A DNA stretch of 39,628 nt from a virus. Its lineage: Duplodnaviria > Caudoviricetes. The stretch lies in the IMG/VR virus record IMGVR_UViG_3300035181_000446, positions 1 to 39,628 of that record; one strand, given 5' to 3'. The notes beneath the pieces were generated by a model that did no database searches, was not told the origin of the DNA, and was given only the letters and a program-made list of their open reading frames with translations. Position 1 is the first letter of the stretch. Every line of letters starts with the position of its first letter. Position numbers and translations under genes: made by a program. This document shows positions 3,847 through 24,074 of the stretch, in pieces.

Positions 3847-4149
3847 ATGAGCATGATACACAGAGAAATTAGCGGATTGATCGGGGCATACATCCGCGCG
3901 TGGTTTTACGGCTGCATTGTGGGGGCGCTCTTTGCGGTCTATATGATGAGCAACAACACGGGTGCAGTACATGTTGATGGCTTGCATGATGCGCAGGTTG
4001 TCGACAATTGCACGCTGCCCACGGGTAGCTATCGCGGCATAGAGTTGCCTTGTTACAACCAACAATGCTTGGAGGCGTTTGGTTACTGGACGCTTGACCG
4101 CAAGTCATCCGTGCTAAAAAAACAGCTTGCAATAGCGCCCGACACTTGA
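3847..4149 (+). CDS. Hypothetical protein with one predicted transmembrane segment
   Basis: 100-aa ORF co-oriented with neighbours; hydrophobic stretch AWFYGCIVGALFAVYMM. Confidence 0.55.
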   Translation: MSMIHREISGLIGAYIRAWFYGCIVGALFAVYMMSNNTGAVHVDGLHDAQVVDNCTLPTGSYRGIELPCYNQQCLEAFGYWTLDRKSSVLKKQLAIAPDT

Positions 4150-4155
4150 TAGCAT
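4127..4155 (+). promoter_or_regulatory. Sigma70-type promoter with CGCCCGACAC box
   Basis: TTGCAA-17bp-TAGCAT; box at 4136-4145. Confidence 0.7.
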
Positions 4156-4187: not shown

Positions 4188-4688
4188 ATGAGCATGTACG
4201 GTGAGAGATTTTACGGCGCAAATGCCAGCACGTTTGTAGGCGTTGCTGGTTGCATCCTTGGAGGGGTTAGCCTGTTGTCTGGCTTGTTCAGCGGCGGCAA
4301 CATCCAGATTTTGAGCGTTGGGCACAATGCGTTTGCAAACGGCTTAGTTAGCGCTGCTGCCGTCCTGATTGGCGGCGCACTGGTAGCAAGTCGCGAGACA
4401 GTTGGGGGCGTTACAAGCCTTTTGCTTGCGTCAGTGCTTGTGTTTGGCGGGATGTTGTCTATCAACATGGGTCAGTTCTTCAAAGTGCTTGCGGCAACGT
4501 CTGAAGCGGTAAGCAAGATCGACATCAGCGTAGACGGCACGGGAAAACCAAAGGCGCAAAATTATGTCATGGTGCGCAGGCTGACAGCGGAAGAAGCTGC
4601 AGAATGTCAGTCAAGCCTTAAATGGGCGCGAACTGATGCCGGACGGCGCAACTGCACGGCTGGTGGCGTGATGGTGGCAAAGCAATGA
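4188..4688 (+). CDS. Hypothetical membrane protein (about 3 transmembrane segments)
   Basis: Conserved leader with GGGGA RBS; three Gly/Ala-rich hydrophobic segments and a soluble C-terminus with two Cys. Confidence 0.75.
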   Translation: MSMYGERFYGANASTFVGVAGCILGGVSLLSGLFSGGNIQILSVGHNAFANGLVSAAAVLIGGALVASRETVGGVTSLLLASVLVFGGMLSINMGQFFKVLAATSEAVSKIDISVDGTGKPKAQNYVMVRRLTAEEAAECQSSLKWARTDAGRRNCTAGGVMVAKQ

Positions 4689-4858
4689 ACGCTTTTGAAT
4701 CACTAACCCATTATTTTGTAAAGCCCATCGCTATTTGGTTGCTTGTGATCTTTGTGGCACAAGCGTTCTTTTTCCCCATGATCACGACGTGGGCAGGGGA
4801 CTTGCTAAGCATGTTCTGGACGCAAGCGGTTGATGAAGTTAAGGGTTTGTTTTGGTGA
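4685..4858 (+). CDS. Small hydrophobic protein, 57 aa (not in ORF track)
   Basis: ATGA overlap with the previous stop; translates MNAFESLTHYFVKPIAIWLLVIFVAQAFFFPMITTWAGDLLSMFWTQAVDEVKGLFW. Confidence 0.65.
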   Translation: MNAFESLTHYFVKPIAIWLLVIFVAQAFFFPMITTWAGDLLSMFWTQAVDEVKGLFW

Positions 4859-4865
4859 ATGAAAT

Positions 4866-4953
4866 ATTAACTGCCGGATAGGCAGCTTAGAAATGATGAT
4901 ATTAGCCAGTCTGTTGACACTATCCATTAACTGCCGGATAGGCAGCTCATAAA
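4866..4953 (+). CRISPR. Type I-F CRISPR mini-array (2 repeats, 1 spacer), no cas genes in window
   Basis: Repeat 1 ATTAACTGCCGGATAGGCAGCTTAGAAA (4866-4893), 32-nt spacer (4894-4925), repeat 2 ATTAACTGCCGGATAGGCAGCTCATAAA (4926-4953). Matches the 28-nt I-F repeat pattern GTTCACTGCCGTANAGGCAGCTNAGAAA with the CTGCC/GGCAG Cas6f hairpin and 60-bp period. Confidence 0.9.
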
Positions 4954-4955
4954 TT

Positions 4956-4976
4956 ACCCGCTTCGGCGGGTTTTTT
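4956..4976 (+). terminator. Rho-independent terminator closing the mini-array transcript
   Basis: ACCCGC-TTCG-GCGGGT stem with a UUCG loop and T-run. Confidence 0.88.
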
Positions 4977-4977
4977 G

Positions 4978-5006
4978 TTGTGTAGTCGCCCGACACTTGA
5001 TAGCAT
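4978..5006 (+). promoter_or_regulatory. Sigma70-type promoter with CGCCCGACAC box
   Basis: TTGTGT-17bp-TAGCAT; box at 4987-4996. Confidence 0.65.
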
Positions 5007-5036
5007 AGACCAACAACACAACATGGGTTTATCGCA

Positions 5037-6299
5037 ATGGCTAAGTTATCAACAACACAATTAAGCAGGATTGAGCGCAAAGTCGACCAGATCGACGCAC
5101 GCACACAGTATTTAAGCCGTGTGGTGAACAACGTGCAAAACGCAAGCGATGCTATCTGGGGTGCAACACGTCCAATGCTTCCTTGGTACTTTAGCGCCCC
5201 CATCGCCCTTCTTGTCACTATCACAACACTTAACCCGCTACAAGACGCTGGAACGCCTGTAAGCGCCCCGCTCAAAGACGCATACACTTACACCCGTTAC
5301 GCTGGTGAAGCCGTTGGCGCATGGTTAGCATCCATCCAGTACGCAAAGCCTAATATGGCATGGGGGCAACAGTTGCGCGGTCTAAACAACGCCATGACAT
5401 CCCAGTTGATGATCAAAATCCGGCAGCGCGAATCATCTACTAATTACGCGATATGGAATACCAAAGGCTACATAGGCGCATGGCAAGGTGGAGCGGCTGC
5501 ACTTACTCAAACTGGTTACATTCACCGCGAGGCGTTTGACAATGCGCCTGATTGCGTCAAATCCGGTAGTTGTGGGGCAAAGCATCTGGCATTTTTGCAG
5601 GACAACCAGCACTGGACGGCTGGCGTGAACTTTGACAGCTTTATGTCCACACCGTCCATACAAGATGGTTTTTTCGTCAAGCTGGCACAATTCAACATCG
5701 ACCAAGGCTTCGCCCGTGGCGTGTTGCGTGCTGATAACCCAAAGCGCACGGCTGGGTTTGTGGCTGTTGCGCACTTGCAAGGGATTGGCGCGGCGGTGGA
5801 TTACTACCTTCACGGCAAAAACACCGACAAAGGTGGCGCGTATGCGTCCGAGTATGCCGCTATCGGTGAGAGTGCCGTACCAGACGTGTTTGACGCTGGC
5901 AGTCCGGTAGAGATTGCAAAAGGATACTTGGGCTTGCATGAGCGTGATGACCGTCTGCAATTGCGCCAGATCGTCGGATTTGACCCTGTTGGTGATGCTT
6001 GGTGTGCCGGATTTGTGAATGGGACATTGCGCAAAGCTGGCTATTCTGGAACGGGCAAGGACAATGCACGTTCATTTTTGGATTGGGGAAAGGCGACTAC
6101 CACACCACATAAAGGTGATGTGGTGGTGTTGTGGCGTGGTTCACCGGGCAGTTGGCAGGGTCACGTCGGATACTACTATGGTGAAAGTGGGGATAACGTC
6201 CTAATTCTGGGGGGCAACCAGAACAATCAGGTGAGCATTGAGAGCTACCCTAAAGCGCGTGTGTTGGGGTATCGGACGGCTGGGCGTGAGGTTGTTTGA
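5037..6299 (+). CDS. Two-domain peptidoglycan hydrolase: lysozyme-like domain plus C-terminal TIGR02594/CHAP-like amidase
   Basis: RESSTNY...GYIGAWQ lysozyme-fold motif; AWCAGFV...ARSFLDWG...GDVVV...GHVG...LGGNQ is the TIGR02594 pattern; hydrophobic segment near residues 45-65. Confidence 0.8.
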   Translation: MAKLSTTQLSRIERKVDQIDARTQYLSRVVNNVQNASDAIWGATRPMLPWYFSAPIALLVTITTLNPLQDAGTPVSAPLKDAYTYTRYAGEAVGAWLASIQYAKPNMAWGQQLRGLNNAMTSQLMIKIRQRESSTNYAIWNTKGYIGAWQGGAAALTQTGYIHREAFDNAPDCVKSGSCGAKHLAFLQDNQHWTAGVNFDSFMSTPSIQDGFFVKLAQFNIDQGFARGVLRADNPKRTAGFVAVAHLQGIGAAVDYYLHGKNTDKGGAYASEYAAIGESAVPDVFDAGSPVEIAKGYLGLHERDDRLQLRQIVGFDPVGDAWCAGFVNGTLRKAGYSGTGKDNARSFLDWGKATTTPHKGDVVVLWRGSPGSWQGHVGYYYGESGDNVLILGGNQNNQVSIESYPKARVLGYRTAGREVV

Positions 6300-6365
6300 T
6301 TATTGTTGAAAATCACAAATACCTAAGGCATAATGTAACCTCAACCAGCAACATAGGATATTGAA

Positions 6366-7070
6366 ATGGATATGATCGTTAAAAACACCAAATCTCACGG
6401 CGTACATGTTCGCAGCGTGGATATTTGGAAAGGTCTTGGTTACACAGAGCATAGATCACTTACTAAGCTTATTTCTGATAATGCTATTGACTTTGAAGAA
6501 TTTGGGGTTTTGCGATTTGAAAACGCAAAACCTAAAGCAGGCTCAAAAGGAGGTAGACCGGAAAAGGGTTACATTATTAGTGAGCAGCAGTTTACCTTTC
6601 TCATTACATTGGTTCGTAGTAGTGAAGTCGCGAATCAATTAAAGAAGCGCCTTGTAAAAGAATTCTTTCGTATGCGCGAACAACTGCAAGAGCTTGGTCA
6701 GTATGCAAAAGTTCGTAGCGATGGTAAGGAATACCGCAAGAAAGAAACCGACGTGATTAAGCAATTTATTGAAATGGCAAAAGCACAAGGCGCAAGCGAT
6801 GGTATTAGCCATTTATACTCAACTCTAACATCAATGGAAAACAAAGCACTGTTTGTTCTTGAACATAATTACCCGAACATTCGTGACGTGCTAAACACTG
6901 GGCAGTTAATGCAGGTTTGCGTCGCTGATCAGATTGTTGAACGGGTATATGCTGAAGCGGTTGAAACCAACATGCATTACAAAGATGCTTACAAGTTGGC
7001 TAAGGAGCGGGTGAATGCTTACGCGGCTGTGGTTGGGAAAAGCCCGTTACTGATGCTAACGCAAGTTTAA
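6366..7070 (+). CDS. Rha-family phage regulatory protein
   Basis: N-terminal HRSLTKLI...GGRP..Y.ISEQQFTFL...KKRLVKEFFRMR pattern. Upstream TTGAAA-17-CATAAT promoter at 6306-6334. Confidence 0.8.
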   Translation: MDMIVKNTKSHGVHVRSVDIWKGLGYTEHRSLTKLISDNAIDFEEFGVLRFENAKPKAGSKGGRPEKGYIISEQQFTFLITLVRSSEVANQLKKRLVKEFFRMREQLQELGQYAKVRSDGKEYRKKETDVIKQFIEMAKAQGASDGISHLYSTLTSMENKALFVLEHNYPNIRDVLNTGQLMQVCVADQIVERVYAEAVETNMHYKDAYKLAKERVNAYAAVVGKSPLLMLTQV

Positions 7071-7131
7071 CACCATCATGGGTTTCTGCACCTGTAGATG
7101 CAGAAACTCCCCACAACACGGAGACACTACC

Positions 7132-7959
7132 ATGACAATTGACCCATTCGACCAACTGGCAGGCGCAATGCAGACATGTACAAAGCAAGCCGAGGACGCG
7201 CTTAAGCATCGCCGTGTTCTCGCTGCGTTGGTTAAGAGCCACATCAGCAAGCCAGCCGTCCGCGATGCCGTGGCAGCGTTTGTACGACTGAACATGGATG
7301 ACATTGAGCCAAGCACTCAAACAACAGCACTGATGATCATGCTCAAGCAAATTGCCCCCGGCAAACCTGCCAACGCTAAGCAGTTAGGCGAGTACGTGTC
7401 AGAGCATTGCAGCGGCATTAGCCAGCATTGGGCGCGTAATCATGCGTTTGGTTTGCTAGTGCAGATCGGCGTGGTTGATGCTAAGGAAGGTAACGGCTTT
7501 GTATGGGCAGACCTAGCAGCAAAGCACAAAGCGCCCCGCGATGCGGCGTTGGCGATGCTAACCAGTGTGGTTAAGCCTGCATTCCCTGAGTTATACGATG
7601 AGCAGCGAAAACTTGCAGCAGCGCAAAAAGCGCATGATTTGGCAAAGCAGCGGCAAGAGTTAGTACGCAAGACGGCGGCAATGGTTGCAAGTCAGCCTGA
7701 GGTTGCGCCCCCGCAAAGCAACGTTAAAGTGATTGTAGCTGCTGTAGCGGCGGCATTGTTTGCTGGTGGTGTGCTGATAGCCAAATACGGTAGCGCCCCC
7801 GTGGTCGAGGCAGATGCGCCCACACAAGAGGTTTATGCAGATGCGCCAGCAATGGACATAGCAGCAATGTTGCGTGCCAATCACCCCGGATTTGACCAAT
7901 TGCCAATGGGCAAGCAACAGCAATTAATTGATGAGGCAACAGCGGCATTTAATCATTGA
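7132..7959 (+). CDS. Hypothetical protein with coiled coil and one C-proximal transmembrane segment
   Basis: ATG 7132 follows the conserved CACAACACGGAGAC leader; hydrophobic VIVAAVAAALFAGGVLIA. Confidence 0.75.
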   Translation: MTIDPFDQLAGAMQTCTKQAEDALKHRRVLAALVKSHISKPAVRDAVAAFVRLNMDDIEPSTQTTALMIMLKQIAPGKPANAKQLGEYVSEHCSGISQHWARNHAFGLLVQIGVVDAKEGNGFVWADLAAKHKAPRDAALAMLTSVVKPAFPELYDEQRKLAAAQKAHDLAKQRQELVRKTAAMVASQPEVAPPQSNVKVIVAAVAAALFAGGVLIAKYGSAPVVEADAPTQEVYADAPAMDIAAMLRANHPGFDQLPMGKQQQLIDEATAAFNH

Positions 7960-7984
7960 CAGTCGCCCGACACTATACGATAAT
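7956..7984 (+). promoter_or_regulatory. Near-consensus sigma70 promoter with CGCCCGACAC box
   Basis: TTGACA-17bp-GATAAT; box at 7964-7973. Confidence 0.85.
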
Positions 7985-8018
7985 GAACATATCAAAAACA
8001 CAACACGGAGACATTAAA

Positions 8019-8681
8019 ATGACACCAGAAATGCAAGCGTCCTTGCGTAAGCCATTTGAGCCGCACCAGATTAGCACTTTTCCAAGAAACGCAGGCTCTA
8101 AAGCGGGTTTGTCATACGTTGGTCATGCTGCACTTACCGATAGACTTTTACAAGCAGACCCTAACTGGACTTGGAATCCAGTCGCTAACCCTCAAGCATT
8201 GGGATTGCCGATGGTAGGGTCTGGCATTGAGATGTGGATTGCCCTCACGATTGGCGGTGTTACCCGCTACGGTTACGGCGACGCGCAAGACAAAAAAGGT
8301 GGGAACGCGGTAAAAGAAGCCATTGGCGATGCGTTGCGCAACGCAGCAATGAGATTCGGTGTTGCGTTGGATTTGTGGCACAAGGGCGGCGACTTGTACG
8401 ACGCAGGTGCAGGTGCAGTTGCACCAGAGCCAGAAAAACAGGAAACCATTACAAAGGGTCAGGCAGACAGCTTACGCGCCGAGCTAGCAAACGGCGGCAG
8501 CGACGAAAGCAAATTTGTCGCATGGTTGGCACGTAGCCTTAAGGTTGGCTGTATCGAAGAAATCCCACTAAAAGCCTTTGCCGACGTGATGGCAACGGCA
8601 AAAAAGGCGACAGCAACCAAAGCAGCAGCAGCAGCAACCAAAGCCAAGGAAGATATTGCTAACACTTTAGGGGGTGAGTGA
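8019..8681 (+). CDS. Rad52/Sak-like single-strand annealing protein
   Basis: LRKPF...YVGHAALTDRL..DP.WTW and KEAIGDALRNAAMRFGVALDLW motifs; lies next to exonuclease and SSB genes. Confidence 0.8.
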   Translation: MTPEMQASLRKPFEPHQISTFPRNAGSKAGLSYVGHAALTDRLLQADPNWTWNPVANPQALGLPMVGSGIEMWIALTIGGVTRYGYGDAQDKKGGNAVKEAIGDALRNAAMRFGVALDLWHKGGDLYDAGAGAVAPEPEKQETITKGQADSLRAELANGGSDESKFVAWLARSLKVGCIEEIPLKAFADVMATAKKATATKAAAAATKAKEDIANTLGGE

Positions 8682-9289
8682 TGGCTATCTATTACCCAGA
8701 ACTGAAACAGCACTCTGCCGAATGGTTTGCCCTACGCGGCAGACCTACCGCCTCACGTTTTAGCGACCTTGTTACGCCAGCGGGTAAACCATCAGCAAGC
8801 GCAACGGCATATATAGCAGAGCTTGCGGCGGCTTACTACGGCAACAAAAAGCCATTCTTTGAGACTGATGCAATGCGCAACGGCACGGAACGCGAACCAG
8901 CGGCGCGGGAACTATACGAACTCATGACGGGCGAAACAGTCAATGAGTGCGGTTTCATCATTGAACGCGACGAACCTTTTTCGCCGGGTTGCAGTCCAGA
9001 CGGTTTGATCGGTGCAGACGGAGGAATTGAGATAAAAAGTCCAGAACCGTGGACGCATATACAAACAATTATCGAGGGCAAAACACCTGCAAAGCACGCG
9101 GCGCAAATCCAAGGATTTTTGTTTGTGTCGGGTCGGAAATGGTGTGATTTTATCAGCTACTGCCCACTATACCCGGCAGAGCATCAGTTGTTCATTGAGA
9201 GACACACGCGCAACGAGCAGTTTATCGCTGCACTGGATGCAGCAACCAGCAACGCGCAAGCCATTTTGCGCAAAATAACGGGGGTTTGA
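8678..9289 (+). CDS. YqaJ/lambda-type exonuclease
   Basis: Q.SAEWFALR..TAS, GTEREP.AR, GCSPDG, IEIK and Q.QG...WCDFISY motifs. Confidence 0.92.
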   Translation: MMAIYYPELKQHSAEWFALRGRPTASRFSDLVTPAGKPSASATAYIAELAAAYYGNKKPFFETDAMRNGTEREPAARELYELMTGETVNECGFIIERDEPFSPGCSPDGLIGADGGIEIKSPEPWTHIQTIIEGKTPAKHAAQIQGFLFVSGRKWCDFISYCPLYPAEHQLFIERHTRNEQFIAALDAATSNAQAILRKITGV

Positions 9290-9290
9290 C

Positions 9291-9551
9291 GTGGACATAA
9301 AGCAGCAGGTTTTAGAGTACGAGCAAAAGTTGATTGACGCGCAAGCGGATTTGGAGCGCTTAGAGCGTTTGCGGCGCATTGCAGAGCGTCACGCATTGTA
9401 TTATTGGGAGACTGTAAAAAAGTATGGCTTCCCTTCTTCCTTACCACAACACGGAGTAATCCATTATGCAGAAGTTAATCATCATCATCTCACTGGCAAT
9501 GCTTGCAACCAGTGTGCAGGCACAATCCCTGCAAAGTATCCAAACGTATAA
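9291..9551 (+). CDS. Hypothetical protein with N-terminal coiled coil
   Basis: GTG start 1 bp after the exonuclease stop; 3' part overlaps the next ORF. Confidence 0.45.
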   Translation: MDIKQQVLEYEQKLIDAQADLERLERLRRIAERHALYYWETVKKYGFPSSLPQHGVIHYAEVNHHHLTGNACNQCAGTIPAKYPNV

Positions 9552-9654
9552 TCCGCCTTTGGGCGTTGATGCGGGATGCGGAAAAGGCAAACCAATTTAT
9601 ACAATCGGCAAAAGCAAAGTATGTGCGTTGCCAAAAAAAGGAGTATCAAAATGA
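9466..9654 (+). CDS. Small exported protein with signal peptide
   Basis: Conserved CACAACACGGAG leader; MQKLIIIISLAMLATSVQA signal peptide; ATGA overlap with ssb. Confidence 0.65.
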   Translation: MQKLIIIISLAMLATSVQAQSLQSIQTYNPPLGVDAGCGKGKPIYTIGKSKVCALPKKGVSK

Positions 9655-10079
9655 TTATGTCAGGATTAGCGCGTATCGGACGCGATGCAGAGTTAAAGTA
9701 TACAACCAACAATATGGCTGTGTGCAATGTAGCACTGGCTTTTACTGTTGGTTTTGGCGACCGCAAAACAACTACGTGGGTTGAGTCGGCAATCTGGGGC
9801 AAGCAAGCTGAGGGATTAGCAAAGCATTTGGTAAAAGGTAGTGCTATTGTTGCGCACCTCAAAGACATCAAGCTGGAGGAATACCAAAAGCGCGATGGCA
9901 CTAACGGCGCTAAGTTGACCGCGACCATGGTTGATATGGAGTTTGCAGGCATCAAGCAAGAGGGAGCGGCGCAAGAGCAACCACGGCAAGCGCCCCCGAT
10001 ACGGCAAGCGCCCCCACCACGTCAAGCGCCGACCAATCAGAAGTTTGAGGATTTTGACGATTTTGACATACCATTTTAG
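9651..10079 (+). CDS. ssb: Single-stranded DNA-binding protein
   Basis: GRDAELKYT, TTW...IWGKQAE...L.KG OB-fold motifs, Pro/Gln linker and acidic DDFDIPF tail. Confidence 0.95.
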   Translation: MIMSGLARIGRDAELKYTTNNMAVCNVALAFTVGFGDRKTTTWVESAIWGKQAEGLAKHLVKGSAIVAHLKDIKLEEYQKRDGTNGAKLTATMVDMEFAGIKQEGAAQEQPRQAPPIRQAPPPRQAPTNQKFEDFDDFDIPF

Positions 10080-10098
10080 CGCAACCACACTATAAAAG

Positions 10099-10122
10099 AA
10101 GCCCCTTAACTGGGGCTTTTTC
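10099..10122 (+). terminator. Rho-independent terminator
   Basis: AAGCCCC-ttaact-GGGGCTT plus T-run. Confidence 0.8.
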
Positions 10123-10125
10123 TTG

Positions 10126-10154
10126 TGTACAAGTCGCCCGACACATATTATAAT
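10126..10154 (+). promoter_or_regulatory. Sigma70-type promoter with CGCCCGACAC box
   Basis: TGTACA-17bp-TATAAT; box at 10135-10144. Confidence 0.75.
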
Positions 10155-10179
10155 CAGCACAACAACACGGAGACACTAC

Positions 10180-12006
10180 ATGTACATACTAAGAGACTAT
10201 CAGCAAGCCGCTGTAGATGCGGCGATTAACCATATACGCAAGCACACAACGTCATGCTGCTTAGACCTTGCTACTGGCGCGGGTAAATCGCTGGTAGCGG
10301 CAAACATTGCCATGCAGATTAACGCTATCAGCGGCAAAAAGACGCTTGTGCTTGCCCCAAGTAAAGAGCTTGTCGAGCAAAACTTTGAAAAGTACGTAGA
10401 CTACGGAAACAAAGCGAGCTTTTACAGCGCATCAGTCGGCATTAAATCGACACGTCATGATGTTGTATTCGGAACGCCATTGTCGGTTCTTAACGGCATT
10501 GAAGGCTTTACCAGTGGTTTTGCGGCAGTGGTGATAGATGAGTGTCATCAAACAAACCCGACAATGCGCAAAATCATAGGCTTGATGCGTCAATCTAACC
10601 CTAACTTGCGCGTGATCGGCATGACCGCAACGCCGTACCGTCTCGGTGATGGATACATCTACCAACTTGGTTTAGACGGTAAGCCAATGCCGACGGAAAC
10701 CATCAGCCAAAATCCCGACAAACTGCCATTCTTTGCCAAGTTGGTTTACAGGGTAAGCACGCGTGAGCTTATCGACCGTGGTTTTTTAACCATGCCAGAA
10801 TTTTATAGTGGTGGCGTGCATTACGGCGGCAATGATCTTGTGCTTAACAGCCGTGGTCAGTTTGACGCTGCGCAAGTGGCTGAAGTATTCGAGGGCAAGG
10901 GGAGACTTACGGCTGACATCGTGGCTGATGCTGTTAGCAGGTCACAGCAGGGATTAGGTGTCATGTTTTTTGCGGCAAGTATTAACCATGCCCACGAGAT
11001 CGTAGATTCATTGCCAGCCGATCAAACGGCGCTGGTGACGGGTGAGACTGGCAAAAAAGAGCGTGCGCAAATACTCAAGGATTTTAAAGCAGGCGCATTG
11101 CGCTATTTGGTTAATGTATCCGTACTCACAACGGGGTTTGACGCGCCCAACGTAGGCACTGTAGCGATATTACGGGCAACTGAATCCCCCGGTCTGATGC
11201 TGCAAATCATTGGGCGCGGTCTGCGGCTGTTGGATGGCAAAAGCAAGGTTATGATTTTGGACTATGCCGAAAACTTGGAGCGTCACGCCCCCGCTGGTGA
11301 TGTGTTTGACCCCGAAATTAGGTCAAAGTCGACAACCAAGGGTGAGCGGCTTGATGTGGTTTGCCCTGTTTGTAGCCATGTTAATCAGTTCGGTGGCAAG
11401 CCTAATCCAGACGGTTTTGAGATAGACGCGAATGGTTATTTTTTGGGGACTCTTGGAGAGCGCATTATCAACGAGATCGGAGAACCGATAGCCGCTCACA
11501 TGGGGCAACGGTGTGGCGGGATGAGTCAGACAGCGCATGATGTTATCCAGTGTAGCCACAGATGGAACTTTCGAGAATGCCCAAATTGTGCAGGCGAGAA
11601 CGCTTTATCGGCGCGTGAGTGTGTGCATTGCGGTCAAGAGCTTATTGACCCTAACGAGAAGCTGGCACTAAAAGCAGAGGGCGTGGCAATCAAGAAGCTA
11701 CGCAAAGAGACAGAGTTACACGAAGGGCAAGTTATCCGCGTGACGGCTCGGATGACGGAGAAAGCTGTGGGAATCACTTATTGGTTAGATGGCGGCAAGC
11801 AAGTCGAGGAATACATTAACCCCAGCGCGTCCAGTGCGTTTTTGCGCAAGCGTTCTAATTCCATTTTGGTTGAACTTGGCATTGCAGGGCTTAAAACCAA
11901 AGAAGGCGTATTGCAGGCGTTTGAAAAGCAGATGCACAAAACGCCCCGCGCGATTGCGTGGACTAAGGCTGGTGATTTTTGTGAGATTAAACATAGGAGT
12001 TTTTGA
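10180..12006 (+). CDS. SF2 DExH helicase (RadD/YejH-like) with C-terminal Cys clusters
   Basis: LRDYQ, ATGAGKS, DECH, TATP, LTTGFDAP and QIIGRGLR motifs; CPVC, CPNC and CVHC zinc motifs. ATG 10180 follows the conserved leader. Confidence 0.93.
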   Translation: MYILRDYQQAAVDAAINHIRKHTTSCCLDLATGAGKSLVAANIAMQINAISGKKTLVLAPSKELVEQNFEKYVDYGNKASFYSASVGIKSTRHDVVFGTPLSVLNGIEGFTSGFAAVVIDECHQTNPTMRKIIGLMRQSNPNLRVIGMTATPYRLGDGYIYQLGLDGKPMPTETISQNPDKLPFFAKLVYRVSTRELIDRGFLTMPEFYSGGVHYGGNDLVLNSRGQFDAAQVAEVFEGKGRLTADIVADAVSRSQQGLGVMFFAASINHAHEIVDSLPADQTALVTGETGKKERAQILKDFKAGALRYLVNVSVLTTGFDAPNVGTVAILRATESPGLMLQIIGRGLRLLDGKSKVMILDYAENLERHAPAGDVFDPEIRSKSTTKGERLDVVCPVCSHVNQFGGKPNPDGFEIDANGYFLGTLGERIINEIGEPIAAHMGQRCGGMSQTAHDVIQCSHRWNFRECPNCAGENALSARECVHCGQELIDPNEKLALKAEGVAIKKLRKETELHEGQVIRVTARMTEKAVGITYWLDGGKQVEEYINPSASSAFLRKRSNSILVELGIAGLKTKEGVLQAFEKQMHKTPRAIAWTKAGDFCEIKHRSF

Positions 12007-12007
12007 G

Positions 12008-12670
12008 ATGAAGAAGTTAATTGCAAAAGCATCGGGAGATGTTATCAGTGCCACAAGCACAAAATGGCATGAAGGAGGTCTTTCTGTTGATGTATCGCAA
12101 GATGTTTTTTTAGATAAAGATCGTTTGTGGATGAGTGGTTATGTTGACGAGTTTGTTTGTAAAATTGGAAACAAGTTTCAAACTGACAAATACCGGATAC
12201 ACACGAATTTAGGCGCAAAAACAGATATTGTTCTCAAGATTATGTTTGGGTGTAACGATAATATGTTGTGCATCCCCGATGTTTGCTTTTATTTTGTCAG
12301 CACGGTAAGAGAAACCGATACAGAATACGAGGGTTATGCTTATCGGTTAGAATTCTCCGATGATGATGGGTATCTTGACGATAGGCATACAGCACTAAAT
12401 GATATAGTGACGATAAAGAAATATTCTCATAAAGATGGCATAGAAGGATTCAGGGCTGTACTGTCATCTGAATTTAGGGAGCTTGTTGCTGATATGTTGG
12501 TTGCGGCGTTAGAGTTTAATGATATGGCAAAAGCGGAGAACAACAAAGGCACTGTTAGCGCTATCTTATCTAACTACAAAGCTGCACGGATTGCCGCTGA
12601 AAGCCTGAATCTAAGCATAGACAGTGAGTCGCTTTTCATGGCTGCGTGTTCGATGACAAAAACCCATTGA
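12008..12670 (+). CDS. Hypothetical protein (AT-rich)
   Basis: ATG 1 bp after the helicase stop with AGGAG RBS; no motif recognised. Confidence 0.7.
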   Translation: MKKLIAKASGDVISATSTKWHEGGLSVDVSQDVFLDKDRLWMSGYVDEFVCKIGNKFQTDKYRIHTNLGAKTDIVLKIMFGCNDNMLCIPDVCFYFVSTVRETDTEYEGYAYRLEFSDDDGYLDDRHTALNDIVTIKKYSHKDGIEGFRAVLSSEFRELVADMLVAALEFNDMAKAENNKGTVSAILSNYKAARIAAESLNLSIDSESLFMAACSMTKTH

Positions 12671-12695
12671 CAAGCGCCCGACACTATGCGATGAT
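12667..12695 (+). promoter_or_regulatory. Sigma70-type promoter with CGCCCGACAC box
   Basis: TTGACA-17bp-GATGAT; box at 12675-12684. Confidence 0.75.
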
Positions 12696-12743
12696 TACCC
12701 CATCGACACATTACCCTTTCAACAACACAACACGGAGATGACC

Positions 12744-13076
12744 ATGAAATACTCAAATGACCCAAGTGCAACAGCACGCGACATCTTAGAAGAGCGCTGC
12801 AATTTTCTGGATTCAACGCTTGATTTGATCGAGCACATGGACGTTAACGGGCAAACACAAGGATGGGATATGGATGGTCTGATCGCATACGCTTACAAAG
12901 TTGATGCAATTACTCGTGAGCAATTGGCATCTGATCGTCGCTACGCAGCAACCAAGCGTCTAATCCTAATCCTGACTGGCACACTAACACGCGCATTGCG
13001 TGACGATGACTTAGACACGGCGGAATATATGGCGGACGCAATCCGTCGATATACATACAGCCTAAGTTCAATATGA
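12744..13076 (+). CDS. Hypothetical protein
   Basis: Conserved CAACACAACACGGAG leader; helical ORF coupled to the VRR-NUC gene. Confidence 0.7.
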   Translation: MKYSNDPSATARDILEERCNFLDSTLDLIEHMDVNGQTQGWDMDGLIAYAYKVDAITREQLASDRRYAATKRLILILTGTLTRALRDDDLDTAEYMADAIRRYTYSLSSI

Positions 13077-13423
13077 TGGCGCTACCAACAGAGCATAACG
13101 AGCAGGTCAGTCTTTGCGGCTGGCTTGCCATCAACCATCCGGGTCTGGATTATTTTGCCATCCCCAACGGCGGCGAGCGCAACGTGATTGTTGCGCAAAA
13201 GCTCAAAGCCGAAGGGGTTAAAGCGGGGATTCCAGACCTGTTTTTTCCATCGCTGAAATTGTTTATCGAGATGAAGCGCGTTAAAGGCGGTAGCGTATCG
13301 CCACATCAAAAATACTGGCACGACAGACTAACCAAAGCTGGTTACGCGGTAGCAGTATGCAAAGGGGCGGCAGAAGCCGTGCAAGTTATTACACAACACT
13401 TAGGAGACAAACAACATGGGTAA
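13073..13423 (+). CDS. VRR-NUC domain endonuclease
   Basis: EHNEQ, FAIPNGG.R, LKAEGVKAGIPDL, FIEMK and S..Q..W...L...GY motifs. Confidence 0.92.
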   Translation: MMALPTEHNEQVSLCGWLAINHPGLDYFAIPNGGERNVIVAQKLKAEGVKAGIPDLFFPSLKLFIEMKRVKGGSVSPHQKYWHDRLTKAGYAVAVCKGAAEAVQVITQHLGDKQHG

Positions 13424-13637
13424 CGCAAAAGGTAGAAACGGCATCAGCACTGGAAAGGTTAAAAAGCTGAACCTGCAGACTCCACGGTCAAAGGCATTAG
13501 CGGCGAAAGAGCGCAATGTGACCACGTTGGAGCGTCTCAAAAATCAGCATTGGCGTGATACCGATATACAGCACCCAACAACAGGATGGGTATATTGGGC
13601 GGCGCAGCCTGATAATCCGACGTTGCGTTGCTACTGA
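13416..13637 (+). CDS. Small basic hypothetical protein
   Basis: AGGAG RBS in a leader variant; ends immediately before a terminator. Confidence 0.6.
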   Translation: MGNAKGRNGISTGKVKKLNLQTPRSKALAAKERNVTTLERLKNQHWRDTDIQHPTTGWVYWAAQPDNPTLRCY

Positions 13638-13640
13638 AAG

Positions 13641-13665
13641 AAAGCCCCTTTATTGGGGCTTTTTT
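13641..13665 (+). terminator. Rho-independent terminator ending the early region
   Basis: AAAGCCCC-tttatt-GGGGCTTT plus T-run. Confidence 0.85.
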
Positions 13666-13914
13666 GTGGGTGGCGATGTAGATCGCCTCAAATTTGAGGG
13701 CATTGGGCAAGTGGTACTCAATTTGAGTAGCACTGCCGAACGCGCAATGCCCTTCCTGCTACCATTCCTGCTACTACCGAACCCGCACAATCGCGTACAA
13801 GCTACTCAACGCCCTTCCCGCTACTACCGTAGCGCCCGCCGAACGATAACGCCGCATAGACAACCACAGTGAAGATATGAGGGAGACTAACCATGTTGGG
13901 ATTGCTAAGGTCTA

Positions 13915-14268
13915 TGGCTCAGGTTTTGGGCTTTGGCTCAGGTTTGGCTCAGGTTTGGCTCAGGTTTTTTTAAGACTTGAGCCAAGTAAGTTGCTGTTAT
14001 TTCTACTATTTATACCCTTTGGCTCAATGGCTCAAGAAAATATACTAAGAGTTGTAGAGTAAGAAAAACATATATAGGGGAGGGTATATGGGGGTATAGG
14101 AAGTATAGGGGAGTATAGAAAGGTAGGTAAAATTCTTGAGCCATTGAGCCAAAGTAGAGAAATATTATAAATAACAGCAACTTACTTGGCTCAAGTCTTA
14201 AAAAAACCTGAGTCAAACCTGAGCCATTGAGCCAAACCTGAGCCAAAACCAGACCTGTGGATGGCTCA
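13915..14268. repeat. Iteron cluster, putative replication origin copy 2 (inverted relative to copy 1)
   Basis: 14 exact TGGCTCA/TGAGCCA heptamers in opposing arms. 13887-14091 is the reverse complement of 1592-1796. Confidence 0.8.
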
Positions 14269-14423
14269 TTCCTTTGGTTAAAGCTCTGACTCATGTCTTT
14301 GGTTAAAGTAGTGGGATGGGAAGTCAAGCAATAAATCCGTGTATCAGGAATTTAGTGTGTGGCGATTGTGTTGTTTGTTGTCGTGTATTATACTAAGCAC
14401 TTAATCAACACGGAGACACTAAC

Positions 14424-15083
14424 ATGACTATCCACATTGCAAACCTGACCATTAACCAATCATCTAATGGTCTTTACTCTATCAACGACATCCACAAAGC
14501 ATCTGGTGGGCTTGCAAAGCATCAGCCTGCTTTCTGGATGCGCTTACAAGCAACAACCAACCTAATAAGGCTTATGGAAAGTCAAGTAATAAATCAGCAG
14601 AATGGCTCGGTAATTGAAACTTTTGTAGGCGGTGATATTACTTCACCAATGCGCGGAACATACGTATGCCGAAAGCTAGTAGTTGCCTATGCACTATGGA
14701 TAAGCACCGAGTTCTTTTCTCATGTACTTGACGTATTCCTTGACGTGGTTGATGGCATCTATGAGCGCGTCAATGCACAAAACAAGGTGATTGAGCAGCA
14801 AACGCTACAGCTCGATTTATTTAGCAGTGAACTTAAAAGTATGCGCAAGCGTGACCCAAGATCGCCGGAAACGTTGCCAGTGCTAACGGGCATGGAAGCA
14901 CGCAAGTGCAAGCCGATGTTCGACCAGTTGGTTGATAAAGGCTATCTGACAGCAAGCGAGTATTACCCGGCGCGAATCCAGTACAAACCAACGCAAAAAG
15001 CGATGGATGCGGGGATTATTGCAGGCGTGAAGAATCGCACTGTGTTGTTTAATCCTGATGTGTTGCAGATACTTGGCTTGTAA
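14424..15083 (+). CDS. KilA-N domain DNA-binding protein (antirepressor-like)
   Basis: GLYSINDIHKASGG..KHQPAFWMR and GTYVC..LV.AYALWIS motifs. Upstream TTGTGT-17-TATACT (14366-14394) and CAACACGGAGAC leader. Confidence 0.88.
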   Translation: MTIHIANLTINQSSNGLYSINDIHKASGGLAKHQPAFWMRLQATTNLIRLMESQVINQQNGSVIETFVGGDITSPMRGTYVCRKLVVAYALWISTEFFSHVLDVFLDVVDGIYERVNAQNKVIEQQTLQLDLFSSELKSMRKRDPRSPETLPVLTGMEARKCKPMFDQLVDKGYLTASEYYPARIQYKPTQKAMDAGIIAGVKNRTVLFNPDVLQILGL

Positions 15084-15146
15084 TCCCACTTGATAAAAAC
15101 CCCAAATCAATCAATACTATCCCCATCTAACAAATGGGGATTTTTT

Positions 15147-15977
15147 ATGAGCAAAACATCAGCGCTGGGCGTGCGGATGATTATGCAGCTTGAGGGTAGC
15201 AAAGCGGTTATCTATAACGACGCGGGAGGATTGCCAACCATTGGTGTTGGGCATCTGCTAACCCGCGACGAACTATCCAGCGGCGCTATCCAGCTATCGG
15301 GGGGGCGCGTGATAGACATCAAGCAAGCGCTATCCTATGAATCCATCCATGACATCCTTGTTGATGACTTGGGTGTTGCTGAAGATGCAGTAAGCCGCGT
15401 TATCAAGCAACCACTTAATCAGCATCAATTCGACGCATTGGTTAGCTGGACTTTTAACGTCGGGCAGGGGGCGCTTGAGCGGTCAACCTTGGCACAATTG
15501 CTTAACGACGGCGACTTTGACAGCGTACCCGCGCAATTGCGGCGCTGGGACAAGGCTGGTGGTCGGGTATTGCGTGCATTGCAAACCAGGCGCGAAACGG
15601 AGGTTAGTATGTGGCTGGGGCAATACACTGATAGCAGTGTTGTGGTTGCCGAGCCAATCGACAAACCAGTGACATACATCACAGATAACCACGGTGAAAC
15701 AATGCCGATATACTATGAGCCAGTGAAGCCGACCGCTACAAGCAATGTTCAAGCCGAAGTTGAGAAAAGCAGCATCTACAAACTGGTTGCACGCTTTGTC
15801 CCCGAAGGCTACGGCACATACACCACAGCAGCGATTGCTATCATCGTGGGGGCGCTAGATATTGCGTCCGACAATTTTGGTATGCCTCACCTACCGTTTA
15901 TCGACTACTCAATCAGTGGGTTATCTTGGGTTATCGGCGGTCTAGGCATGGCGTTTTTGCGTAGAGCGCAACAATGA
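15147..15977 (+). CDS. Endolysin, GH24 lysozyme with C-terminal hydrophobic extension
   Basis: EG-x-Y.DAGG.PTIGVGH catalytic motif, Q.QFDALVS.TFNVG, RW.KAGG...L..RR..E; tail of about 100 aa ending in two hydrophobic segments. Confidence 0.92.
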   Translation: MSKTSALGVRMIMQLEGSKAVIYNDAGGLPTIGVGHLLTRDELSSGAIQLSGGRVIDIKQALSYESIHDILVDDLGVAEDAVSRVIKQPLNQHQFDALVSWTFNVGQGALERSTLAQLLNDGDFDSVPAQLRRWDKAGGRVLRALQTRRETEVSMWLGQYTDSSVVVAEPIDKPVTYITDNHGETMPIYYEPVKPTATSNVQAEVEKSSIYKLVARFVPEGYGTYTTAAIAIIVGALDIASDNFGMPHLPFIDYSISGLSWVIGGLGMAFLRRAQQ

Positions 15978-16330
15978 CGGCTGATAATGCGCGGTGCAAA
16001 AAACGTGCTAATATGTCTGTTAAGATGCACATCCAGCGCTACCACAACGGCACAATATTGCTAACCCGTGCCAATGGCTCTACTTGGTTTGGATTGTGGC
16101 GGCATTTGCGCAATCATCTGTAAGTGGCATCACCCGCCAGCGGGGACAATGGCTGGACGTGGTAGGCAGTAGAGCGGTATCTGCTGCCGGGGTTGGGGCT
16201 GATGATGAGTCTGACAATACTCCTTGGGGATGATCTATACAGCAGTTAGCAGACCAACCATAAATTTATCGGCTCGGCATGAACTAAATCAGCTAATATG
16301 ATGACATACATCTATTTAATGGGTTGTGTC

Positions 16331-16585
16331 ATGCTAACAGAGCAACAAATGGACGACATCAAAGAGCGCGTTATCAAAGCAGAGTCACGATTAGACCGTC
16401 ACGGAGAAGCGTTAACCCGCTTAGAGCTTGCTGGCAGTCAATCGGAGCACAAAATAGCGGAATTGGCTGACCAAATACGGACGTTTGTCACGCAAGCACG
16501 CACGGCAATGTGGGTGGTCGGTATTATTGTCGTGGCTTCTCAATCTGGTTTTTTGGCGGTAATTAAGGCTATGATAGGGATATGA
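16331..16585 (+). CDS. Coiled-coil protein with C-terminal transmembrane segment (holin or XhlA-like)
   Basis: Heptad-rich N-terminus plus MWVVGIIVVA...FLAVIKAMIGI; sits between endolysin and terminase. Confidence 0.6.
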   Translation: MLTEQQMDDIKERVIKAESRLDRHGEALTRLELAGSQSEHKIAELADQIRTFVTQARTAMWVVGIIVVASQSGFLAVIKAMIGI

Positions 16586-16872
16586 AACAGCAATTACGCC
16601 TCAAACTGCCTGATACGCCACTCTCAAAAGAAGAGATGCGGCTTGCTATGTTTGAGCGCGTGCCTATGCTGATTAATACGCTCGCTGAGATTATACAAAA
16701 CGAGGACAACCCAGCAAGCGTGAGAGTGCAGGCTATAAACTCATGGCTTGATCGGGCAATTGGCAAGCCAAAGCAAGCAGTTGATATGCAGCATTCTGGC
16801 AACGTATCCACGACAGTCCTTACCCCTGAGCGCTTCGAGCAAATCTGCCGAGATTTGGCGGATGACGTTTAG
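16582..16872 (+). CDS. Probable terminase small subunit
   Basis: Directly upstream of and overlapping TerL; VRVQAINSWLDRAIGKPKQ motif seen in small phage packaging proteins. Confidence 0.6.
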   Translation: MKQQLRLKLPDTPLSKEEMRLAMFERVPMLINTLAEIIQNEDNPASVRVQAINSWLDRAIGKPKQAVDMQHSGNVSTTVLTPERFEQICRDLADDV

Positions 16873-18265
16873 TCCTGAGCAGCACGCGGCAATGTCGCTA
16901 CGTGCGCATCATGACTTCTATCATTTCACGCGCTGGATGTTCCTCATGCGTCGCAACTATAAGTGGTCACGCGCCCTGCATCACAAGCAGATAGCGGATG
17001 CCCTGATGAGGGTTTATCGTGGCGAGTGCAAGCGTCTGATTATCAATATTCCACCACGGTACAGCAAAACTGAGATTGCCGTGATCAACTTCATTGCTTG
17101 GACAATGGGCAGGCATCCCGACTCTGAATATATCCACGCGTCCTACTCTGCTATGCTAGCAGGCAATAACAGCTCACAAATCCGCACACTGGTGCAGCAT
17201 GAGGATTACCGGGCGATATTCCCCGGCGTGGAGTTGGCAACCGAAGCGGCGCATCATTGGAAGACCACGGCGGGTGGCGTGATGTATGCCACGGGAACGG
17301 GCGGAACAATTACCGGATTCGGCGCGGGTAAGCAGCGGGATGGGTGGGGCGGGTGCATAGTAATCGACGATGCGCACAAGGCTGATGAAGCAAGGTCTGA
17401 GGTTATGCGCCAGAACGTCATCGACTGGTTTCAGAACACGCTGGAAAGCCGCAAGAACAGCCGGGAAACCCCAATCATCGTTATCATGCAACGTCTGCAC
17501 GAGGGTGACTTGAGTGGGTGGCTGCTGAATGGCGGTAATGGTGAAAAATGGGAGCATTTGTGCCTGCCAGCTATCCAGCCCGACGGCTCTCCGTTATGGC
17601 CTGAAAAGCACAGCCTTGCTGAATTGCGCGTGATGGAGCAGGCAAGCCCATACGTGTTTGCAGGTCAATACATGCAGCGACCAGCCCCGTTAGATGGCGG
17701 CATATTCAAGCCGGGTCAAATCCAGATTATTGACGCACTACCCGCCGAGCGGGTTACATGGGTGCGAGGCTGGGATTTTGCCGCGACATTGGACGGTGAC
17801 TATACGGCGGGTGGGTTGCTGGGGCGATTGCCCGATGGTCGGTTTGTCATTGGTGATATGGTGCGACTAAGAGCGCTTGCAGATGAGCGTGATAATGCGC
17901 TAGTCAACACGTCTGCACTCGACGGCAAGTCGGTAAAGATCAGCCTCCCCCAAGACCCCGGACAGGCTGGGAAAACACAAATCTTGTACCTGTCGCGCAA
18001 GCTGTCAGGCTACCGCATCCACACCAGCCCAGAAACGGGCGATAAAATCACCCGTGCTGAGCCATTCGCGGCTCAAATCAATGTGGGCAATGTACTGATG
18101 TTGCGCGGCGGCTGGAATTCGGCTCTAATTGACGAAATGCGAATGTTTCCCAATGGCAGCAATGACGACCAAGTTGACGCGCTGTCACGGGCATTTTCCG
18201 AACTGATCACCCCAATTCGCCTGTCGGTCAGTCAGGCAGCAATAACCAAGGCTGCGGCGAGATGA
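16862..18265 (+). CDS. terL: Terminase large subunit
   Basis: RLIINIPPRYSKT Walker A variant, IVIDDAHK Walker B, IVIMQRLH..DL, WDFA and NDDQVDALS nuclease motifs. Confidence 0.95.
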   Translation: MTFSPEQHAAMSLRAHHDFYHFTRWMFLMRRNYKWSRALHHKQIADALMRVYRGECKRLIINIPPRYSKTEIAVINFIAWTMGRHPDSEYIHASYSAMLAGNNSSQIRTLVQHEDYRAIFPGVELATEAAHHWKTTAGGVMYATGTGGTITGFGAGKQRDGWGGCIVIDDAHKADEARSEVMRQNVIDWFQNTLESRKNSRETPIIVIMQRLHEGDLSGWLLNGGNGEKWEHLCLPAIQPDGSPLWPEKHSLAELRVMEQASPYVFAGQYMQRPAPLDGGIFKPGQIQIIDALPAERVTWVRGWDFAATLDGDYTAGGLLGRLPDGRFVIGDMVRLRALADERDNALVNTSALDGKSVKISLPQDPGQAGKTQILYLSRKLSGYRIHTSPETGDKITRAEPFAAQINVGNVLMLRGGWNSALIDEMRMFPNGSNDDQVDALSRAFSELITPIRLSVSQAAITKAAAR

Positions 18266-18425
18266 TGAAAGTCAAGAATTAAATCCGCGTAGTTCAAATT
18301 TAGTTATCGAGTACCGGGAAGGCAAAGCCCTACATGGATAAGCTGCTAGATGCTTTTTAACGAATCAGTGCGCGACTACCTGTAATGCCCTATAATCATG
18401 GCTTTACCCCACATCGGACAAAGCC

Positions 18426-19793
18426 ATGAGCTTGAAAAAAGCGGCAGCGAAAGCGCAGATGATAGACAGTCCCCAAAAGCACTACGATTACCCGATTACG
18501 CCCCCACGGCTGTTGCGCGGCGTTGCCCCATCATCCGCCCCCGTGATGGCGATGGATTCGCCAGCGTATACCGAGTTCCAATATTCTGGCGGAGGCTTCC
18601 CCGGCTTCCCTTATTTGGCGCAACTGGCTACCCGCTCCGAGTTCCGGGCGTTCGCAGCAGCACTGTCAACGGAATTGACGCGGGAATGGATAGAGCTGAC
18701 ATCAAGTCAAGAGGATGACAGCGCAGGCGAAAAACTCAAGGCGATTGAGGCTGAATTCAAACGGCTGAACTTGCGCGGCGTTATTCAAAAAGCGGCTGAA
18801 CATGATTGCCTGTTCGGGCGCGGTCAAATCTATCTGGACATCGTGGGTGCTGACCCGAAAACACCGCTTATCCTGTCAAACAAAACCATACCCGAAAAGT
18901 CGCTGACTGCCATCAAAACGATTGAGGCGATTTGGACAACCCCGGCGGCATACAATAGCAATGACCCTACCGCACCCGACTTCTACGCCCCAACAGGCTG
19001 GTACGTGTTGGGCAAAGAGGTACATGCGTCCCGACTGATGACTATCGTCACGCGCCCCCTTCCAGACATCTTAAAGCCTGCGTTCAATTTCGCCGGAATG
19101 TCTCTGAGCCAACTCGCCGAGCCATACGTTGACAACTGGCTGCGCACGCGGCAAAGCGTTTCAGACCTGATAAGCAACTTTTCCATTACGGCACTTGCTA
19201 CGTCAATGGATCAAGTTTTGCAGGGTGATGACGACGGCAGTGACCTGATTAACCGAGCCACCTTGTTCACGACTCTGCGCAGCAACAAGGGGTTGATGCT
19301 GCTGGACAAAGAGCGTGAGGAGCTTGTGCAGATCAACACCCCATTGTCTGGATTGCATGAACTGCAATCTCAAGCACAAGAGCAGATGTGCAGCGTGTCG
19401 CGTCTGCCAGCCATCATCCTGACGGGTATCAGCCCCAGTGGGTTGAATGCCAGCAGCGAGGGCGAGGTACGGGCGTTTTACGATTGGATAGCTGCACAAC
19501 AAGAAAGCCACTGGCGGAAACCGATTGAAACCGTATTGTCGCTGGTGCAACTGTCCCTGTTTGGCGAGATTGACCCAGATATTGGCTTTAATTTCATGCC
19601 ACTTTACCAAATGAGCGCAATCGAGCTGGCGGGGATTCGTGCACAGGATGCCAACACCGCAGCCACTTACATAGACCGAGGCGTGCTTGACCCACAAGAA
19701 GAGCGTGAGCGTTTGGCACACAGCAAGGATAGTGGGTATCACGGGCTAGATGTTGATGCGATGCCGGAGATAGCAGATGCCGAAGAAGCCTAA
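18426..19793 (+). CDS. Portal protein (DUF1073-like)
   Basis: Follows TerL; 455 aa; L.G.SPSGLNASSEGE...FYD motif. Confidence 0.88.
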   Translation: MSLKKAAAKAQMIDSPQKHYDYPITPPRLLRGVAPSSAPVMAMDSPAYTEFQYSGGGFPGFPYLAQLATRSEFRAFAAALSTELTREWIELTSSQEDDSAGEKLKAIEAEFKRLNLRGVIQKAAEHDCLFGRGQIYLDIVGADPKTPLILSNKTIPEKSLTAIKTIEAIWTTPAAYNSNDPTAPDFYAPTGWYVLGKEVHASRLMTIVTRPLPDILKPAFNFAGMSLSQLAEPYVDNWLRTRQSVSDLISNFSITALATSMDQVLQGDDDGSDLINRATLFTTLRSNKGLMLLDKEREELVQINTPLSGLHELQSQAQEQMCSVSRLPAIILTGISPSGLNASSEGEVRAFYDWIAAQQESHWRKPIETVLSLVQLSLFGEIDPDIGFNFMPLYQMSAIELAGIRAQDANTAATYIDRGVLDPQEERERLAHSKDSGYHGLDVDAMPEIADAEEA

Positions 19794-20553: not shown

Positions 20554-20652
20554 CGGGCATTAAAAAACCCGCCGATAGACTCGAAGCGGGTTGAGTTGCT
20601 TCCTCAATGGGGGTAATATTGAGGTTCTGTTAAACAACCCGGCAACAATACC

Positions 20653-21321: not shown

Positions 21322-21325
21322 AACC

Positions 21326-21350
21326 AAAGCCCTCCAACCTAGGGCTTTTT
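21326..21350 (+). terminator. Rho-independent terminator after the second Rha gene
   Basis: AAAGCCCT-ccaacct-AGGGCTTT plus T-run. Confidence 0.7.
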
Positions 21351-21396
21351 CAATTCTGTGATTGCCAACCCAATAAAAAACAACGATAATGACGAA

Positions 21397-22536: not shown

Positions 22537-22548
22537 GGAGGGCAGGTT

Positions 22549-23022: not shown

Positions 23023-23032
23023 GGAGTAACTC

Positions 23033-24073: not shown

Positions 24074-24074
24074 A

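Follow-up and report, generated by a model that had tools for sequence, protein, structure and literature searches.

A linear myovirus record of ~40 kb contains a type I-F CRISPR mini-array whose single spacer probably directs the I-F Cascade of the host to destroy an integrative element of Thiothrix, a small island that would be a competitor or parasite of the phage. The locus is genuine and belongs to a known class of mini-array; its target has been identified and is unusual, and its alleles form a natural series. Viral mini-arrays have been published before, and the first-pass annotation of this DNA placed the novelty in target and context; the new parts are the satellite-like island as a target and an allele series leading from decoy to guide.

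Anatomy of the array

The record (39.6 kb, 88% complete, with head, sheath, and baseplate genes) was analyzed as one stretch of 39,628 nucleotides, hereafter called the window. Two 28-nt type I-F repeats flank a 32-nt spacer, an arrangement claimed from the sequence alone in the first-pass annotation and confirmed by its coordinates (Table 1) and by the match of repeat 1 to the Rfam model CRISPR-DR4 (40 bits versus a gathering score of 35); the 22-nt core common to both repeats has exactly two copies in the window and none in 100 shuffles. Apart from repeat positions 23 and 25, the two repeats are identical. That annotation had counted both differences correctly, but an interpretation of them as point decay fails, the tail of repeat 2 being the end of a deleted hairpin unit. 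Its other anatomical claims stand, namely, a UUCG terminator directly behind the array and the absence of both a leader and cas genes. Repeat 1 begins 7 nt past the stop codon of the 57-aa open reading frame (ORF), which leaves no room for a leader. Neither a search of the record for Cas1, Csy3, and Csy4 nor a scan of 55 phage ORFs for any cas gene gave a match; as the record is linear and 88% complete, this absence applies to the record and is not proven for the whole phage. The phage repeat agrees with host repeats at 26/28 bases (the array of Thiotrichaceae genome G109) and 27/28 bases (genome G105). Mini-arrays are described as having one or two spacers, host-type repeats, and no cas genes (SPV1 and SPV2; Medvedeva et al. 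2019, PMC6858448; Iranzo et al. 2020, PMC7099407), which is what we find here in a viral genome, as far as the record extends.

Table 1. Positions of the array, its neighbors, and two other protospacers in the window
Feature	Position	Strand	Remarks
Likely promoter of the array-bearing transcript	4127..4155	+	-35, 17 nt with the repeated phage motif, -10
166-aa membrane protein, no known family	4188..4688	+	Upstream of the array, same predicted transcript
57-aa single-helix membrane protein	4685..4858	+	Stop codon 7 nt before repeat 1
Type I-F repeat 1	4866..4893	+	ATTAA start, host-type AGAAA end; hairpin folds
Predicted 60-nt crRNA (8-nt handle, spacer, 20-nt hairpin)	4886..4945	+	Cas6f cut site and size as described in PMC10651486; fold
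Spacer, 32 nt	4894..4925	+	Match to DUF927 helicase gene beside CC PAM
Repeat 2	4926..4953	+	Ends in what is left of a hairpin unit deleted here
Intrinsic terminator, UUCG loop	4956..4976	+	Stem 4956-4971, then T run; kept in both sister phages
Second copy of phage promoter motif	4978..5006	+	Would restart transcription past the terminator
420-aa lysozyme-like/CHAP cell-wall hydrolase	5037..6299	+	3' of the array cassette
CC PAM and 29/32 protospacer for L010 spacer 2	5461..5494	+	Inside the neighboring hydrolase gene
CC PAM and 31/32 protospacer for a G109 Thiotrichaceae I-F1 array spacer	14449..14482	+	Host link

The array-bearing transcript

A 10-bp phage motif recurs at window positions 1976, 4136, 4987, 7964, 10135, and 12675 (and in 8 copies in record G001), mostly in sigma-70 spacing between -35 and -10 elements and followed by a C/A-rich leader and a ribosome site; it likely represents an operator-promoter of the phage. 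Between the copies at 4127-4155 and 4978-5006 lies a predicted transcript that spans two membrane-protein genes, as the first-pass annotation had it (3 hydrophobic segments in the 166-aa ORF, 1 in the 57-aa ORF), and has the array at its 3' end. A consensus promoter scan made no call at the motif promoters, so we infer the array-bearing transcript, and no RNA datasets are listed among the runs containing the phage. The possibility that the spacer is aimed at this motif was rejected, the best agreement being 19/32, i.e., at chance level.

Homologs of the 166-aa protein occur in 15/107 Thiotrichaceae genomes; the protein itself is matched by nothing in Pfam, PHROG, or PDB, and its Atlas leads all remain below 0.8. 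The homologs of the 166-, 57-, and 420-aa proteins are contiguous and repeat-free at 6 places in 5 Thiotrichaceae genomes, and because those of the 57- and 420-aa proteins abut there without a repeat, the RNA cassette is an insertion in this phage lineage. A metagenome scan with the 420-aa protein detected 2 distant loci only.

Elsewhere in the window, a 94-bp sequence containing runs of an 11-bp repeat is nearly duplicated (93%) at 1645-1768 and 14133-14245, where it adjoins a primase-helicase gene and a KilA-N gene; it is origin- or iteron-like. A pentapeptide-repeat protein (39268-39628, minus strand) is cut by the record end.

Assignment to a host family

Searching window positions 5000-24900 against 107 Thiotrichaceae genomes returned three short array-spacer matches, two of which (in genomes G094 and G088) belong to other repeat types. 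In the third genome, G109, a complete I-F1 operon lies beside an array with a spacer fitting the window at 31/32, with CC at 14449-14450; this is the only one of 670 I-F spacers to exceed 25/32 against the window phage and its two sisters (chance, 3e-10). Because an I-F1 spacer targets the phage with this fit and PAM, the host family is Thiotrichaceae, and the virus likely infects Thiothrix, a sulfur bacterium. The internal repeat of the sister phage L010 occurs, as an exact copy, at 41 GTDB loci, including three Thiothrix genomes; among 947 spacers from exact-repeat loci, the best match to the phage is 23/32. The proposed check of the phage repeat against host I-F arrays thus points to a compatible Thiotrichaceae system, and a host with a cognate I-F system of compatible repeat appears at the level of the family (G109), not of the strain.

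Thiothrix fructosivorans G004, the genome holding the island discussed below, has a type I-Fv system (Cas7fv; L145:8773-15221). Its repeat is the same as that of the G109 I-F1 system, so the guide might load on either.

The spacer matches co-occurring DNA

Four mat or sediment DNA runs (X1 to X4) contain the phage, and its own source may be among them. Eight records in these runs align to window positions 4886-4933: four are the phage array, and four match the spacer only, covering exactly 4894-4925 at 30-31/32 (1-2 other letters) and diverging beyond. The spacer-only contigs come from three of the four runs (X2, one; X3, two; X4, one), with no protospacer contig found in X1, and none of the four is a perfect match. 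A CC PAM is present in both contigs that show upstream DNA, so that the proposed spacer search requiring this PAM gave a positive outcome; the chance expectation of a 30/32 match in the 9.35 Gb searched is 5e-6. The window array allele assembles without differences in all four runs, and the target co-occurs in three; no host-array copy of the window spacer was found in these runs.

Since the target contigs are only 39-314 nt long, the type of element that they represent is deduced from a ~90%-identical relative. A codon-degenerate pattern of the spacer has 1 match in the 107 Thiotrichaceae genomes (control, 0), a gene for a 645-aa DUF927 helicase in Thiothrix fructosivorans (G004), at 28/32 beside a CC PAM, with mismatches at positions 7, 16, 26, and 28, the first of which is inside the seed. 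Read by eye, the G004 flanks agree with the loose ends of the contigs at 28/30 and 25/27 upstream and at 26/30 downstream. The next relative, in genome G112, is 79% identical at the amino acid level and has a 26/32 protospacer with a CC PAM. Homologs of DUF927 occur in 20/107 Thiotrichaceae genomes, and the protospacer is recognizable only in these two, the other 27 DUF927 loci having at most 20/32. As neither the window phage nor its sisters have a DUF927 gene, the spacer does not target its own genome; it would thus match another mobile element, with the correct PAM, while sparing the phage itself.

Other searches with the spacer gave no further target. Against phage and plasmid sets, the best blastn E values are 0.9 and 9, respectively; in IMG/VR, a 16-nt part has 22 loci, none above 21/32, and the degenerate pattern and a flank motif have no match; in GTDB, the exact 22-mer is absent; and the 107 Thiotrichaceae genomes have no match at 3 mismatches (the G004 copy has 4). 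The target flank motif at 2 mismatches has 4 matches, none in the target gene.

These results bear on two alternatives. It is improbable that the guide is in fact aimed at a different Thiothrix phage or plasmid encoding a closely related DUF927 helicase, which would make this an ordinary inter-virus mini-array: the contigs are too short to show their context, DUF927 homologs are present in 42-kb and 106-kb phages, and the mini-arrays in the published accounts that we cite mostly aim at viruses, but the two closest genomic relatives lie in tmRNA-integrated islands, IMG/VR and the phage and plasmid sets hold no match, and the phage-set homologs are at most 34% identical. A closely related virus, the typical though not universal target, is matched by L010 spacer 2 and not by the window spacer.

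We regard as highly improbable a Cracr-type regulator, in which partial pairing would repress a host cas or toxin promoter. Phage I-F Cracrs are described as common (10.1101/2024.10.29.618823), and the spacer contains a TTGACA hexamer; however, it is a full-length 32-nt spacer with a near-perfect target in coding sequence, and the best PAM-proximal run among 19,441 CC sites, of 9 positions (13/27 overall), does not lie in a cas promoter. No PAM-proximal match of at least 9 bases to a cas or creT promoter was found in the set scanned (12 loci and 189 kb of Thiotrichaceae CRISPR-flanking DNA, with the cas locus of the actual host strain outside it). The gene repression entertained in the first-pass annotation consequently finds no support in the promoter scan, and its suggestion of an attack on a competitor is backed by the near-perfect CC-PAM protospacer in co-occurring DNA and by the I-F system in the host family.

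The closest genomic relative of the target gene lies in a satellite-like island

In G004, the matching gene lies at the end of a 13.6-kb element found at the 3' end of tmRNA, with 16-bp direct repeats as its boundaries. The element encodes a P4-type integrase, Arc regulators, a 169-aa membrane protein, an M23 peptidase, a lysozyme-like protein, an FtsK ATPase, AlpA, a primase-like protein, and DUF927, and none of its 16 scanned ORFs is a virion gene. The G112 copy, which insertion sequences have broken up, is likewise located behind tmRNA. Compared with 11 island loci, 1239 host I-F spacers give no match above 26/32.

Comparison with known families of elements gives a mixed picture. Like PICI and PICMI satellites (as described in PMC10085698 and PMC10803314), the island has an integrase, an AlpA-type regulator, and a primase-replicase (primase-helicase), i.e., the PICI core; it differs in having neither TerS nor a capsid-morphogenesis gene (the sole terS-labelled match among the 16 ORFs is a 66-aa AlpA helix-turn-helix protein) and in its integration at tmRNA and not at fis, the PICMI site. 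With the FtsK-type AICEs (as described in PMC3218068), it shares a single FtsK/SpoIIIE translocase alongside integrase/excisionase and replicase genes, integration at a tRNA or tmRNA gene, and the lack of a type IV secretion system, at a size of 13.6 kb, but the host is a gammaproteobacterium and not an actinomycete. Judged by gene content, the island seems satellite-like but fits none of these families fully, and we do not call it a satellite. An element of this kind, small and integrative, is most likely the competitor, and not a related phage.

The phage itself shares a module of a 166-aa membrane protein, a wall hydrolase, and an FtsK ATPase with tRNA- or tmRNA-integrated Thiotrichaceae islands, including the targeted one (window 4188-6299 and 37996-39264, minus strand; L181:16400-L182:10030; L151, L214, L216, and L218). 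The phage FtsK is 36-38% identical to those of L215 and L216 and only weakly similar to that of G004. This module recalls the FtsK-type transfer of filamentous actinomycetes and, speculatively, might move DNA along Thiothrix filaments.

Sister alleles probably record exchange with host arrays

Only two sister phages, L009 and L010, are present in IMG/VR; neither they nor the window phage have a tyrosine integrase (3/3 records). At the same site, L009 combines a degenerate half repeat with one full repeat. Between the two lies a 32-nt palindromic pseudo-spacer, and the full repeat is followed by a second palindrome and then by the terminator also present in the window; the first hairpin unit, in the guide position, folds with a z score of -3.8 (-5.05 for the L010 copy). 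L010 has the L009 frame plus two 32-nt spacers inside the repeat: its first repeat has the phage start and a host end, its middle repeat is of the host type, and its last has a host start and the phage end. The outer repeats of L010 are thus hybrids of the single L009 repeat, the likely footprint of recombination with a host array, for which two crossovers in the shared core would most simply account. Both palindromes are missing from the window allele, whose repeat 2 closes with the final part of the second one. Repeats with the ATTAA start also occur in a leader-bearing host array of G105, and since those of the phage match this array type, recombination can explain the window allele as well.

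De novo Cas1-mediated acquisition, which the ATTAA start of repeat 2 would suggest, is made less likely by the G105 array with its ATTAA repeats. That array (L156:16520-16812) has two first spacers that look palindromic.

The palindromic pseudo-spacers (L009:10658-10781; L010:864-903 and 1052-1085) flank the repeat in both sisters and share a central motif, and the first keeps the exact 60-nt spacing from a handle-like octamer; the arrangement is a Racr candidate. The pseudo-spacers are not host repeats in the 107 Thiotrichaceae genomes and have no cas-promoter target. In an unrelated viral contig (L002:1496-1620), a promoter precedes one I-F repeat, after which come short degenerate repeat-like pieces and a terminator; this locus is Cracr- or Racr-like. 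In runs X1 to X3, some contigs bypass the array or depart from the window sequence at 4861, 4949, or 4984 (window 4827-4983); the one departing at 4861 matches the L009/L010 allele, and further alleles exist in the same samples.

Spacer 2 of L010 corresponds to the hydrolase gene next to the array, at 31/32 with CA in L010 itself, 29/32 with CC in the window, and 26/32 with CA in L009; no target was found for spacer 1. The change between CC and CA is silent (a Thr codon), and both PAM states (position 5462) are seen in runs X1 and X4. L009 shows the same PAM loss yet lacks spacer 2, so host immunity may have driven the loss.

The strongest rival to a targeting function is passive capture: the phage repeat would recombine with host arrays and take up any spacer, the resulting RNA at most soaking up Cas proteins. 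We consider this unlikely, though less so than the other rivals. Host arrays are rich in spacers against mobile elements, so a PAM-correct target is expected even without benefit to the phage, and the hybrid repeat ends of L010 point to just such an origin. A nontargeting crRNA also weakens I-F interference, according to PMC10651486, and in L009, whose repeat is single, a strong hairpin occupies the guide position. The window spacer, moreover, is confined to one phage lineage and occurs in 0/2 sisters, so that conservation gives no evidence of selection. Against passive capture, the window allele no longer has either hairpin and retains the terminator and a clean 60-nt unit, it is uniform across the runs in most of which its target co-occurs, and no host array in those runs was found to hold the spacer. 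The decoy role proposed in the first-pass annotation accordingly suits the sister allele better and the window allele less well.

Proposed steps from transcription to interference

A guide that destroys the Thiothrix island would act as follows. An mRNA starting from the 4127-4155 promoter would carry the array at its 3' end, and host Cas6f would cut both hairpins, as in known I-F biology, to release a 60-nt crRNA. The spacer could then pair with 30-31 of the 32 bases of the co-occurring DUF927 gene beside CC, the extent of the sequence match, upon which Cascade with Cas2/3 would degrade the island, whether excised or chromosomal, a cost presumably affordable for a lytic phage. The spacer itself would have entered by recombination between the phage repeat and a host array and not by leader-dependent acquisition, as the sister alleles suggest. 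A broader interpretation is possible but on balance doubtful: by recombination with host arrays, one locus would alternate between a decoy state, an RNA anti-CRISPR made of a single repeat with hairpin pseudo-guides, and a targeting state, and in the window phage it would be a protein-free weapon against a satellite-like island that has in common with the phage a module of membrane protein, wall hydrolase, and FtsK for spreading along Thiothrix filaments.

Relation to known systems

Virus-borne CRISPR mini-arrays were reportedly already treated by Faure et al. in 2019. In the accounts of phage mini-arrays cited above, leaders are absent, spacer gain by recombination is proposed, and some spacers target adjacent genes of relatives while sparing the phage itself. 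L010 spacer 2 likewise aims at the adjacent gene of a relative and spares its own genome, whereas the window spacer targets an unrelated integrative island rather than a related virus; the hybrid repeat ends across the three alleles constitute sequence evidence for the recombination route. The nearest precedent for the target is one SPV1 spacer against an integrated pRN1-like plasmid (reported in PMC6858448).

Solitary repeat units (SRUs) are reported to act as Racrs, and RacrIF1 joined to a repeat and spacer gave a functional crRNA (Camara-Wilpert et al. 2023, PMC10651486). The L009 allele is similar in having one I-F repeat in a phage intergenic region, strictly one full and one degenerate half repeat; the window, with two repeats and a targeting spacer, is not an SRU and does not have the single repeat of a Racr. 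What differs from SRUs is that natural SRU-like and array alleles here share one site.

Cracrs, which are described as repressing cas promoters (10.1101/2024.10.29.618823), and CreR-like RNAs (10.1101/2023.03.03.530964) also combine an I-F mini-array with a terminator and hijack host Cas proteins. In those descriptions, Cracrs are frequently of reduced length and show partial pairing with promoters of cas or toxin genes, whereas the window guide is full length with a near-perfect coding target.

Phage ICP1 directs its own CRISPR-Cas system, of type I-F, against PLE, and chromosomal cutting near PLE is reported to suffice to block it (PMC6452262). ICP1 and VIPR (10.64898/2026.10.15.759431) both resemble the present case in that a phage-encoded RNA guide is aimed at a resident integrated element; those phages, as described, encode effectors as well, whereas the present record shows a guide only, and Cascade would have to come from the host.

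A literature search by title and abstract, which left subscription papers and large supplementary tables mostly uncovered, found no Cas-less mini-array against a satellite or PICI. The supplementary files searched for PMC10651486 and PMC10120712 include neither the sister records nor Thiothrix nor the repeat; larger mini-array and Cracr tables, or Faure et al., may list the locus.

Implications

Before VIPR, only three systems with which phages counter satellites had been characterized, all in Vibrio cholerae, by the count of a 2026 preprint (10.64898/2026.10.15.759431). The three alleles make testable how leaderless phage mini-arrays gain spacers, hitherto only proposed as recombination in the published work cited here, and whether solitary repeats are the precursors of mini-arrays. 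A single experiment could already draw on a known target and PAM, a host system, and alleles that serve as natural controls. If the targeting role is true, ~90 bases suffice for a phage to disarm an island that lives in the host as a parasite or rival, and the phage contributes no protein itself.
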